A stretch of DNA of 64,000 nt, taken from assembly GCA_963721805.1 (NCBI GenBank), contig CAVRJY010000001.1, forward strand, positions 544,001 through 608,000. Direction: 5' to 3'. Positions 55,613 to 64,000 of this stretch are shown here, in pieces (position 1 is the stretch's first letter; each line of letters opens with the position of its first letter). The DNA comes from Nitrospirota bacterium. Lineage in GTDB: Bacteria; Nitrospirota; Thermodesulfovibrionia; Thermodesulfovibrionales; JdFR-86. The position numbers were made by a program, and so were the translations under genes. Under the pieces are notes generated by a model. That model saw nothing but the letters and a program-made list of their open reading frames with translations. It ran no database searches and was not told where the DNA came from.

Positions 55613-56257
55613 TTATTGTTTTTTGTTTGCGAGGTTATTGTTTGCTTCTTTGATGAGTATCTTATCGAAATCTCTGGGTGTCAGCTTCTGTGATAGTTGT
55701 TCCTCGAATTCAAGCTTTTGAGCATACGCTTTTAAGAAAAATGTGGCGTATTGGGTATCAACTTTATTATTCAAATGATCCTTATATTCTTTGGGTACAG
55801 TGGAGATTAACTTGCTGAGTGCGCTAACGGCACGAGAATCATAAATGAAGAATAAGTTGGGACAATGGAAATGTAAATATTTTGAGCTTAACGATCTATT
55901 GTGGTGCCCCGTCAGGCTATAAAATAAATCACACAAATACTTATGAATGAGCAATATATTATCTATCGATTCATCGGACAAGCTTGTTCTTATAATCGCT
56001 TTGAGACGAATATCGAGTTCAGATTTTCTGATAGAAGACGCCACTTTATATGTATAGAAATCATCATTGTTATATTTATCTTTGATTTTTCTTCTTTCAA
56101 TGGCTGCGGCGTATGCTCGCCCAATCAGCCAAACCTTCGCTATAATTATATCGTCTTTTTTGTGATAGGGATATTTTGAGCAGAGATCATACAAGACATT
56201 GTTGCCAAAATCCCATTCTTTTTCCTGAATGGCTTTTAAAATCATTTCATTCTGCAT
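55613..56257 (-). CDS. AT-rich hypothetical protein, possible HhH-GPD-like fold
   Basis: Intact 214-aa ORF with sharply lower GC than its flanks; SLSSKYLHFHCPNLFFIYDSRA motif. Confidence 0.7.
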   Translation of the reverse strand: MQNEMILKAIQEKEWDFGNNVLYDLCSKYPYHKKDDIIIAKVWLIGRAYAAAIERRKIKDKYNNDDFYTYKVASSIRKSELDIRLKAIIRTSLSDESIDNILLIHKYLCDLFYSLTGHHNRSLSSKYLHFHCPNLFFIYDSRAVSALSKLISTVPKEYKDHLNNKVDTQYATFFLKAYAQKLEFEEQLSQKLTPRDFDKILIKEANNNLANKKQ

Positions 56258-61158: not shown

Positions 61159-62496
61159 ATGAACCGGCTCATACGATTGCTGAGTTCGCGGAAGCTCGCG
61201 GTGGTGCTGCTGGCCGTGATGGTGGCTGCGCTGCTGGGCTCGACTTATTTCCCCAACAAGTTCACGATTTCATCCCCGGCGGGGTGGGAACAGCTCAAGG
61301 CCGATAAACCCTACCTCTACGAGCTTTCAAAATACCTGTCCACCGACGAGCTGGTAAAGAGCTGGCCGTTTATAGGGCTCTCCGCGTTCCTGTTCCTCTC
61401 GACGCTCACCTGCACCGTGCTGCGCATCCTGCAGTGGATGAGGCTCAGGAAGACTGAATTTGAGAAGGAGAAGGCGTTTTCGTTCTCAAAGGAAGTCAGC
61501 TCTGACATGCCGGTGGACGAGGCGCGGCGCACGGTGCTTGGCCGCCTGTCTGAAAAGGGCTGGCAGTATGCCGAGGACGGCGGCGGGGTGCAGGCCCAGC
61601 AGGGCATCGCGCTTGGATTCCTCGGGTCCATATTGTTTCACGTCGGGCTCATTTGCGTATTCCTTGCCGCGCCCATAACGGCGCTGACGTCCATTACCGC
61701 CTCTGTAGTCCTCACGGACGGGATAACGGAGCAGTCGCTGCGCGATGTGGCCGACGGCGCGGGAGCGCGCCAGCTGCCCGACGTACAGATCACGGCAAGC
61801 GGGCTCTGGGGCAAGTATTATGAAGGCTTCTATAACGTGGACTTCGGGGGCACGCTCAAGATCGGCGACTGGGAAGGCCCGGTGCTGGTCAATAAGCCGG
61901 CATATTACGATGGATTTCAGTTCGCGCTGACGCAGTACGGATATTCCCCGTGCGTTAACGCAGAGTCCGGGGACGAAACGCTGATGCACGCGTGCTTCAA
62001 GCTCGACTACGATAAAGGCATGATGGAGCCTGCCGGCGTCCTAGGGCCGGGCATGTCGATGTACCTGATGTTTTTCCCTGACTTTGACCGCGAGGGGGGC
62101 AATCTCATGAGCAGGGGCAATGAGGCCAAAAACCCGGTGCTCCTCATCAAGCTTTACCGTGACGGAAAGGCGCTCCATAAAGGGTTCCTGCTTAAGCCCG
62201 GCGAGGAGGGCGAGTTTGAGGGTATGAGGTTCAGTTTCCCCGAGCTCCGCAACTGGGGCGGTTTCATGGTCACAAAGGAGTTCGGGATGGTCGTAGTCCT
62301 GATAGGCTCGCTCTTCGGCATCCCCGGGCTTCTGGTGAGGTTCCTGAGCAACGAGCGCAGGATAGAGTTTGAGTTCAGAGAGGCCGGAGGCGGCAGCAAG
62401 GTGCTCATCAGGGGCTATTCGCGATACTATCCGGCGTTTCTCGAAAAGGAAGTCATCGAGACCGCCGAGCTGTTTGACCGGGAAAGGAATAAATAG
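61159..62496 (+). CDS. ResB/Ccs1-like cytochrome c maturation protein
   Basis: LLSSRKLAVVLL, STLTCT, GSILFHVG, VNKP motifs; adjacent to ccsA. Confidence 0.8.
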   Translation: MNRLIRLLSSRKLAVVLLAVMVAALLGSTYFPNKFTISSPAGWEQLKADKPYLYELSKYLSTDELVKSWPFIGLSAFLFLSTLTCTVLRILQWMRLRKTEFEKEKAFSFSKEVSSDMPVDEARRTVLGRLSEKGWQYAEDGGGVQAQQGIALGFLGSILFHVGLICVFLAAPITALTSITASVVLTDGITEQSLRDVADGAGARQLPDVQITASGLWGKYYEGFYNVDFGGTLKIGDWEGPVLVNKPAYYDGFQFALTQYGYSPCVNAESGDETLMHACFKLDYDKGMMEPAGVLGPGMSMYLMFFPDFDREGGNLMSRGNEAKNPVLLIKLYRDGKALHKGFLLKPGEEGEFEGMRFSFPELRNWGGFMVTKEFGMVVVLIGSLFGIPGLLVRFLSNERRIEFEFREAGGGSKVLIRGYSRYYPAFLEKEVIETAELFDRERNK

Positions 62497-62498
62497 CG

Positions 62499-63311
62499 AT
62501 GGGTACATATGAGGCCGTGTTCGTATGGGTTTCCATCTCGATATACGGCGCCGGCTTTCTGCTGTATCTCTCCGGCCTGGTATTCAAGAAGGAAAAGCAC
62601 CAGAGGTGGGGCTATGCGGCATCGCTGCTGGGTTTCGGGTTTCATACCGCGGCGATAGCCGCGCGCTGGATAGTGACCGGCCACCCGCCGGTGATGGCAA
62701 CGTACGAAAACGCCCTTATGGGCACTTGGGTCATGATGCTCACCTATATAATCATGTCGAGGGTGTTTCCGCCGGCCAAGGCCTTCGGGGTGGCGGTGCT
62801 CCCGCTTGCGCTGTTGATACTCGGCAACGGGGTGCAGACCGGCGGCGTGCTGAGGCCGCTTGAGCCCCCGTACAGGAGTCCCTGGCTGTATATACACGTG
62901 CTGTTTGCGTGGTTCGCGTTCGGCTCTTTCGTGACCGCGTTCGCCACAGGGGGGATGTATCTGCTGAAGACCCGCTCAAGCAAGGGCGTCCTGAGCCGCC
63001 TGCCCGAGCTAAAGGTGCTTGACGAACTCTCGCTGAGGCTCATACTATTCGGATTTTTCGCTATGGCCGTCACGATAGTATGCGGGGCGATATGGGCTCG
63101 CAGCCTCTGGGGCAGATACTGGGGGTGGGACCCGGTCGAGACCTGGTCGCTGATATCATGGCTGATATACGGCCTGAACCTGCATCTGCGCATAACGATG
63201 GGCTGGCGCGGCAAGCGCGCAGCGTGGCTCGCGATCGTATCGCTGGTCGGAGTAGGATGCCTGTTTTTCGGGGTTGGTTTCGTCTCGAACCTCCATACCG
63301 GGATTTTTTGA
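62499..63311 (+). CDS. ccsA: System II heme lyase CcsA/ResC
   Basis: WLYIHV; GAIWARSLWGRYWGWDPVETWS (WWD domain); C-terminal LH. Confidence 0.95.
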   Translation: MGTYEAVFVWVSISIYGAGFLLYLSGLVFKKEKHQRWGYAASLLGFGFHTAAIAARWIVTGHPPVMATYENALMGTWVMMLTYIIMSRVFPPAKAFGVAVLPLALLILGNGVQTGGVLRPLEPPYRSPWLYIHVLFAWFAFGSFVTAFATGGMYLLKTRSSKGVLSRLPELKVLDELSLRLILFGFFAMAVTIVCGAIWARSLWGRYWGWDPVETWSLISWLIYGLNLHLRITMGWRGKRAAWLAIVSLVGVGCLFFGVGFVSNLHTGIF

Positions 63312-63508: not shown

Positions 63509-63524
63509 TGGCACGCCTATTGCA
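63509..63524 (+). promoter_or_regulatory. Sigma54 (-24/-12) promoter
   Basis: TGGCACG-CCTA-TTGCA, canonical spacing. Confidence 0.88.
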
Positions 63525-63575
63525 CTCGTTTATGCGGTTAAGGTTCTAAATCCAGATGGAAAGGAGGTGAAAACT

Positions 63576-64000
63576 ATGAAAAAGACAATAATTTTAGCCC
63601 TTGCGATTAGCATGGTCATCGCTGGCGTTGCTATGGCGTCGGTTGTAAGCTCCAAGCACGACATGCGTTACATCGCCCTTCCTGGGACCGCCCTGGCCAA
63701 CAGGATCACTGCAGGACCTACTGAGATGACCTCACAGGTCTGCGTGTTCTGTCACCATCCTCACCGCGGCGCGACCTCAAACGGCGTGACCAACACCCTG
63801 CTGTGGAACATCAATGCGGCGGCTCACAACTATCCGGTCTATGCGAATACCGCTACGCTGGATTACGCAACGCATGCCGATGGCTACACTGTAGGCACGG
63901 ACACTGGCGAGGATGCAAGGTACACCCTGCTTTGCCTGGGTTGTCATGACGGTACGACCGCAGTTGCTTCCAACTCGTTCATCCGCACGGCAGCTGACGG
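63576..64000 (+). CDS. OmcE-like secreted multiheme cytochrome c (3'-truncated; absent from the ORF track)
   Basis: AAGGAGGTGA RBS; hand translation MKKTIILALAISMVIAGVAMA|SVVSSKHDM...QVCVFCHHPH...LLWN...LLCLGCHDG, open to the window end. Confidence 0.85.
   Translation, partial: MKKTIILALAISMVIAGVAMASVVSSKHDMRYIALPGTALANRITAGPTEMTSQVCVFCHHPHRGATSNGVTNTLLWNINAAAHNYPVYANTATLDYATHADGYTVGTDTGEDARYTLLCLGCHDGTTAVASNSFIRTAAD

Follow-up and report, generated by a model that had tools for sequence, protein, structure and literature searches.

The accessible text of PMC13712944 describes solved OmcE filaments from two Desulfuromonadia species. Structure 9YUQ is the bundle of Desulfuromonas soudanensis OmcE, i.e., DSOUD_2954 (PMC13712944; 10.64898/2026.02.26.708365), and the loops that form this bundle are, according to the same text, not conserved among homologues. 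It also reports four conserved extra histidines in OmcE positions, and the available part of PMC9473688 describes that one haem per OmcE subunit receives a His ligand from the adjacent subunit. Among Desulfuromonadia, the OmcE/OmcP homologue group is the second most prevalent group (PMC11492766, available part). In its accessible sections, PMC13712944 furthermore reports putative homologues of OmcE from five phyla, Nitrospirota being one of them, picks likely nanowire genes by a nearby large outer-membrane barrel and a beta-propeller lipoprotein, proposes a five-haem 'leaky' OmcE-like family, and argues that four haems and nine His would be expected of a filament anchor. The presence of an OmcE-type gene in Nitrospirota is thus not new, the phylum being already named there. 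Our literature search returned no Nitrospirota filament structure; the CHHPH motif discussed below was outside this search, and Fig. 3D of PMC13712944 may include a member of the respective clade. Papers that mention omcE along with RpoN were listed as well, such that sigma-54 control may already be reported. As far as their available texts go, PMC12977616 cautions against function transfer between cytochrome paralogues, and PMC11077965 disputes cytochrome filaments as physiological conduits even in Geobacter.

The gene studied here is located at the edge of the window, i.e., the whole 64-kb stretch of DNA that was analysed (G000:C1:544001-608000, with G000 being the source genome; positions given without contig refer to the window). 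Its in-window part (63576..64000, plus strand) encodes residues 1-141 of an OmcE-family tetrahaem cytochrome c, as assigned from genome extension, motifs, homology and fold. The original prediction had reported a reading frame without stop inside the window, in which a signal peptide is followed by SKHD...QVCVFCHxPH...LWN...Y...CLGCHDG with two haem motifs. This description is confirmed: the in-window translation reads MKK...AMA|SVVSSKHD...QVCVFCHHPH...LLWN...Y...CLGCHDG, such that x is His, and the frame stays open up to a TAG stop at C1:608361, 361 bases beyond the window. The whole gene (G000:C1:607576-608361) encodes 261 aa with CxxCH motifs at residues 56, 120, 217 and 254, the last of which ends three residues from the C-terminus. 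That is, the protein holds exactly four motifs, as for a tetrahaem cytochrome, and no fifth one is found even when CX2-4CH spacing is allowed.

Residues 1-21 (63576..63638, plus strand) form a Sec-type signal peptide according to sequence and hydropathy, with an inferred A-M-A cleavage site whose A21 is nearly invariant. Since residues 1-40 lack Cys and thus a lipobox, and hydropathy shows no further hydrophobic segment downstream of the signal peptide (0.92 as the best mean over 19 residues), we rejected a reading as lipoprotein or membrane-anchored protein; membrane tethering was one of the alternatives that the original prediction had set against itself. To assess ligands, we used a family alignment of 100 rows, i.e., the window protein and 99 of the 119 other listed homologues. 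The putative distal haem ligand His28 (KHD, 63657..63659, plus strand) is found in 100/100 rows. Haem motif 1 (CVFCH) is directly followed by a clade-specific ninth His (His61) and the putative distal ligand His63 (63741..63764, plus strand; His63 in 100/100 rows), while haem motif 2 (CLGCH, 63933..63947, plus strand) was identified by motif scan and alignment. Past the window edge follow His171, haem motif 3 (residues 217-221), His224, haem motif 4 (254-258), the stop and a hairpin. Within the alignment, all eight Cys, the four proximal His, His28, His63 and His224 are invariant, and His171 is present in 99/100 rows. The core length of the window protein is 240 residues vs. 204-220 in its relatives, i.e., it carries insertions. 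Reading frames with at least two CxxCH occur 4 times in the real 64.4-kb region vs. once in total over 30 base-shuffles; given these counts and the completion of the frame by genome extension, a chance or truncated ORF was rejected. The window gene is a real and complete OmcE-family tetrahaem cytochrome gene.

When searching 177,635 solved sequences, the window protein matches only 7TFS (Geobacter sulfurreducens OmcE, E 8.8e-14) and 9YUQ (E 2.8e-12) at E<0.001. BLASTP identity to OmcE is 26.6% over 244 columns. The AlphaFold2 model (pLDDT 77.6, pTM 0.75) yields a single Foldseek match at E<=0.001, which is 7TFS (E 2.5e-5, TMq 0.40), and a second structure comparison with 48,161 chains provides Z>=2 for 7TFS alone (Z 8.1, rmsd 4.9, 188 aligned); the fit is modest in both programs. 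In genome G045, a 232-aa protein and the 7TFS chain agree within the compared stretch (by motif and by eye), and the eight conserved His of the window protein align with those of this 7TFS-identical protein. Pfam and NCBIfam scans of the window protein give no OmcE-specific match, with weak generic CXXCH matches alone, and the ESM Atlas places it in generic paired-CXXCH clusters. Based on the sequence matches, the conserved ligands, the fold match to 7TFS and the aligned eight His, i.e., as judged from sequence and model, the membership in the OmcE-like tetrahaem fold family is secure, and the OmcE homology claimed by the original prediction holds. A complex prediction with three copies and four haems scored 0.22 vs. 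a mark of 0.42 and counts neither for nor against a polymer.

Among 1312 candidates, 191 are homologues of the window protein at E<=0.001, and the named close ones are labelled Nitrospirae, Nitrospiraceae or Thermodesulfovibrionales. Using the single protein as query for the whole order, matches at E<=1e-12 are found in 49/151 genomes, including 6/9 other genomes of the family. OmcE-like genes are also present in Bacteroidota, Gemmatimonadota, Planctomycetota and others. With homologues this common in the order and the phylum already in print, the gene is an expected one as a sequence finding. Motifs of dsrA, aprA and sat are present in the genome and, together with the homologue labels, suggest that the source organism is a sulfate-reducing Nitrospirota bacterium.

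The window gene has close company. Two further OmcE-like tetrahaems are encoded in G000, both on contig C4 (C4a and C4b), and three further OmcE-like paralogues are found in G045; all paralogue groups keep the eight ligand His. The motif order that the original prediction likened to OmcE is indeed found, but it is common to all of these paralogues and therefore does not single out the window gene as the filament subunit. By similarity, C4a appears at least as OmcE-like as the window protein if an OmcE orthologue is sought, with 27.8% BLASTP identity to OmcE over 291 columns and 43% of aligned pairs in a global alignment vs. 32% for the window protein. A sigma-54 site close to consensus is present for C4a as well, whose neighbours are a 914-aa NHL protein and a very large multihaem gene, as is the case for a G045 paralogue other than the 7TFS protein. 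The N-terminal domains of fused 10-11-haem proteins form a group together with C4b. In trees of 81 and 40 rows, the window protein, Geobacter OmcE and C4a each have a well-supported clade, while the order among them is unsupported. The sister group of the window clade, weakly supported (SH-aLRT 93), comprises compact tetrahaems encoded next to a PPIase/barrel gene (G014, G016, G026). Median core lengths are 217 for the window clade, 208 for OmcE, and 262 and 266 for the paralogue clades. What speaks for the window gene over its paralogues is the compact size of its clade, its own promoter and terminator, and the position of the sister genes of other families next to PPIase/barrel genes, while C4b goes with the domains of 10-11-haem fusions and C4a with the giant-cytochrome module. 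Besides, we observed in G025 a tandem duplication of the window gene's orthologue (G025:C5:131119-132684), each copy with its own sigma-54-like site. Furthermore, OmcE-like genes with five CxxCH (G015:C1:939152, G028:C43:19106, G029:C57:29839) form one tree group and are candidates for the five-haem family proposed in the available part of PMC13712944.

His61 directly follows the proximal His of haem 1, i.e., the window protein reads CHHPH vs. CHTPH (Thr) in OmcE. It is present in 74 of the first 76 alignment rows, which are the closest, and in 3 of the last 24. Considering clades, it is found in 8/8 rows of the window clade and 0/29 rows of the OmcE, C4a, C4b and G045-paralogue groups, where Thr is found. 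In cytochrome c3, a His right after CxxCH ligates a neighbouring haem. His61 may be only a clade signature; we consider it unlikely that the CxxCH-H-PH clade is a distinct nine-His OmcE variant, i.e., a predicted filament anchor or terminator, or one whose extra His provides a new ligand or metal site between the subunits of a sigma-54-controlled Nitrospirota nanowire.

Directly upstream of the window gene, we find a ResB-like cytochrome c maturation protein of system II (445 aa, 61159..62496, plus strand; Pfam PF05140, E 1.8e-33) and a CcsB/ResC-type cytochrome c assembly protein (270 aa, 62499..63311, plus strand; PF01578, E 8.7e-39), the latter scoring 177.6 bits for TIGR03144, which is below the cut-off of 187.6. 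Downstream, the hairpin is followed by tig, clpP and clpX, as recognised from sequence. Further upstream in the window, a 214-aa ORF (55613-56257, minus strand) has a high content of Lys, Ile and Asn; its composition differs from that of the folK-like and aminotransferase-like genes on either side, and it was possibly acquired.

A predicted sigma-54 (-24/-12) promoter TGGCACGCCTATTGCA (63509..63524, plus strand) is located 51 nt upstream of the start and matches the consensus perfectly. It is the sole match in the 64-kb window (0.01 expected), while a looser form occurs 12 times across the whole genome, which also holds an rpoN motif. The strict motif is found upstream of 10/11 clade genes with full upstream sequence (window gene included), 15/24 other tetrahaem genes of the order and 9/21 Geobacterales homologues, and was not found upstream of the 7TFS-identical gene of G045. 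A ribosome-binding site AAGGAGGT (63561..63568, plus strand) is read from the sequence just upstream of the ATG. At the 3' end of the gene, there is a terminator-like hairpin (C1:608388-608411); one was found vs. 0.9 expected, i.e., its position and not the count is the evidence. A sigma-70 scan of the plus strand found nothing, and an Rfam scan of 7 loci around the window gene and its orthologues gave no riboswitch or other RNA. Codon usage of the window gene is at the 24th percentile when measured against a reference of five genes only and shows no sign of very high expression. Two RNA libraries contain short contig pieces from relatives of the window gene, none of them 99% alike.

In G000, the window gene has no adjoining barrel or NHL gene; the respective cluster is located on contig C4. 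There, the gene run starts with two small DUF1670-like proteins, a large barrel, a SurA-like PPIase and an NHL propeller lipoprotein, and continues with tetrahaem C4b, a 7-haem protein, tetrahaem C4a, the 914-aa NHL/BACON/FG-GAP protein and an 18-motif cytochrome. In at least eight relatives (G001, G003, G004, G005, G009, G025, G161 and contig C31 of G013), the orthologue of the window gene is found beside this cluster, divergent to it and a few kb from the barrel, usually with one membrane-protein gene in between. The second copy of G013 (C40) is apart from any cluster; the survey leaves out G006, where the copy starts a short contig, and covers G015 incompletely. The best G000 match of the neighbouring membrane protein is about 0.7 Mb away on C1. 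Since orthologues adjoin the cluster in relatives, the block of window gene and cluster was, as judged from gene order, split in G000.

The G004 barrel model shows a long run of beta-strands and is a predicted large beta-barrel, whose listed structural matches are outer-membrane barrels, e.g., TonB-dependent receptors, ushers and MtrB. The barrel family has a C-terminal stretch in common with barrels beside Geobacter omcE (hhalign 95.8%, 71 columns). As assembled, the G000 barrel gene is frameshifted by four single-base losses in a long Gly-Asn repeat (G000:C4:73787-76389, i.e., L003:18787-20000 and L004:1-1389, minus strand). The breaks fall in the purine-rich part encoding this repeat and look like G runs that have been shortened, as is typical for assembly errors from long reads. 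Both barrel halves are open and homologous to the barrels of relatives, and G001, G003, G004 and G005 all retain the Asn/Gly-rich linker without a frameshift. The frameshift is thus probably an assembly error, with a slippage switch as a lesser option. A multihaem cytochrome region (G000:C1:1335580-1338731) is broken over several overlapping frames and resembles intact 13- and 29-motif genes on C3, which suggests further indel errors in the assembly.

Some observations concern the cluster itself. C4b and the 7-haem gene (G000:C4:69592-71618) together match fused 10-11-haem proteins, e.g., L064:15948-17663, and look like a split undecahaem. The two tandem DUF1670-like genes that head the barrel operon (G000:C4:76437-77041) are kept in relatives with a CHHPH gene and are possible regulators. 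Type II secretion and type IV pilus assembly genes (pilB, pilT and pilC types; G000:C4:77435-90000, L004), recognised from sequence, adjoin the barrel operon divergently, a link that may be incidental. The module of an NHL/BACON/FG-GAP protein (~910 aa) and a ~2000-aa cytochrome with 18 CxxCH is present in two copies (G000:C4:59725-68360 and G000:C2:454262-463020), and relatives' versions have up to 41 motifs.

Given these results, we lean towards the reading that the window gene product is an exported OmcE/UetA-type subunit polymerising into a haem-chain filament. The apoprotein would be exported to the periplasm, where its four haems would be attached by ResB/CcsB and the SurA-like PPIase and the NHL lipoprotein would handle the subunit. 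It would then pass through the large beta-barrel, which would act in trans with its gene on contig C4, and subunits would stack head to tail such that, like in OmcE, each supplies one His to a haem of the following one; the eight-His count appears compatible with such inter-subunit ligation. The outcome would be an insulated haem chain outside the cell, which the split 4+7-haem pair of C4 may link to periplasmic carriers, such that electrons could be exchanged with minerals or partner cells. Beyond the gene anatomy, we infer all of these steps. The reading is supported by OmcE filament subunits being the only solved sequence matches, the fold match to 7TFS and the aligned eight His. Further support comes from the orthologue-cluster linkage in relatives, the complete cluster on G000:C4, the barrel-family stretch common with Geobacter, the compact core length, the sister genes beside PPIase/barrel genes, and the resB-ccsB adjacency, which recalls the Geobacter omcE locus. 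It is weakened by the low identity of ~27%, C4a being as close or closer and having a sigma-54-like site itself, the unordered clades, and the eight His being kept in all paralogues. The lack of an adjoining barrel in G000, the frameshifted barrel, the codon usage and the OmcE-like genes in other phyla weaken it as well, as do the paralogue caution (PMC12977616) and the dispute about filaments (PMC11077965) in the available parts of both papers. The label of a candidate conductive-filament cytochrome given by the original prediction is nevertheless a fair one, which the conserved gene context supports; the presence in this lineage was already covered by the accessible text of PMC13712944.

The main competitor, possible although clearly less probable, is that the protein serves as the tetrahaem on the outer surface of a Uet-type porin-cytochrome conduit, i.e., as a monomer or short oligomer docked on a barrel-embedded 4+7-haem wire, with the missing ligand coming from a partner and no long filament. 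The cluster make-up is closer to what the available text of 10.1101/2022.05.06.490989 describes for uetA-J than to the Geobacter omcE locus, at which no PPIase homologue was found. The grouping of C4b with N-terminal domains of 10-11-haem fusions points to a use of the OmcE fold inside larger conduit proteins. On the other hand, the two solved structures with this fold are both filaments, having its own promoter and terminator would suit a subunit in excess over the barrel, and the Uet authors leave polymer formation open in that text. The ninth His raises the question of whether the protein is instead an anchor, terminator or tip subunit, with His61 as an extra ligand capping a filament that has C4a as bulk subunit. 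Here, the restriction of His61 to the clade, the retained CHTPH and OmcE-likeness of C4a, and the cytochrome c3 precedent meet the nine-His argument of PMC13712944 (accessible text). We nevertheless deem this quite improbable, given the position of His61 and the stand-alone expression signals of the gene. With its place at haem motif 1, just two residues before His63, His61 would be at the wrong end for capping the open haem of its own chain, provided that His63 is the inter-subunit ligand, as the analogy to OmcS would have it. Moreover, sister genes without His61 hold the same place beside PPIase or barrel, G025 has tandem copies each with a sigma-54 site, and C4a is located like a G045 paralogue other than the 7TFS protein. 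Finally, the separation from the cluster, the relatives' neighbouring membrane protein being far off on C1, the broken barrel frame and the insertions would also fit a gene orphaned in this strain, i.e., a broken-up cluster with the barrel as true pseudogene and a soluble periplasmic carrier or decaying protein. This is very improbable, since ligands, promoter and terminator are all intact, the barrel breaks are single-base losses as in long-read assembly error, and the barrel halves are open and homologous with an in-frame repeat in four relatives.

A filament from a Nitrospirota-like bacterium, if demonstrated, would mean that such sulfate reducers are capable of long-distance electron exchange with minerals or partner cells, which would bear on sediment sulfur and iron cycling. 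What the locus adds is a clade-wide ninth His, a conserved sigma-54-type promoter, and a subunit gene unlinked from its export genes, which would be missed by searches requiring a nearby barrel.

Compared to known systems, the clusters found here resemble uetA-J of Tenderiales, as far as described in the available text, in having tetrahaem, PPIase, large barrel and NHL proteins, an eleven-haem component and system II genes. They differ in that the 11 haems are split over two genes (4+7), the tetrahaem gene is detached in G000, and an NHL/BACON protein and a cytochrome with 18 to 41 motifs are appended; trihaem c7 and cupredoxin genes as in uetA-J were not seen in the fetched clusters. UetA is likened to the window protein by its description, and its own function is only predicted (10.1101/2022.05.06.490989, available part). 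Given the partial text of PMC11492766, the window protein would fall into the same broad OmcE/OmcP group, a grouping that mixes filament-forming and other members. DSOUD_2954 of 9YUQ matches the window protein over the full-length sequence with the same ligand pattern; since its bundle loops are not conserved among homologues, this likeness is no guide to bundling here. In contrast to the window protein, which is known from its gene alone, 7TFS OmcE has been seen as a filament. Further differences to OmcE are the low sequence identity, the ninth His and longer loops, and, at the gene level, the strict sigma-54 motif and the missing adjoining barrel/NHL gene in G000. With Geobacter sulfurreducens OmcE, the window protein has in common the signal peptide, four CxxCH and four distal His in the same order, the fold and a similar size, and both loci have resB-ccsB upstream.
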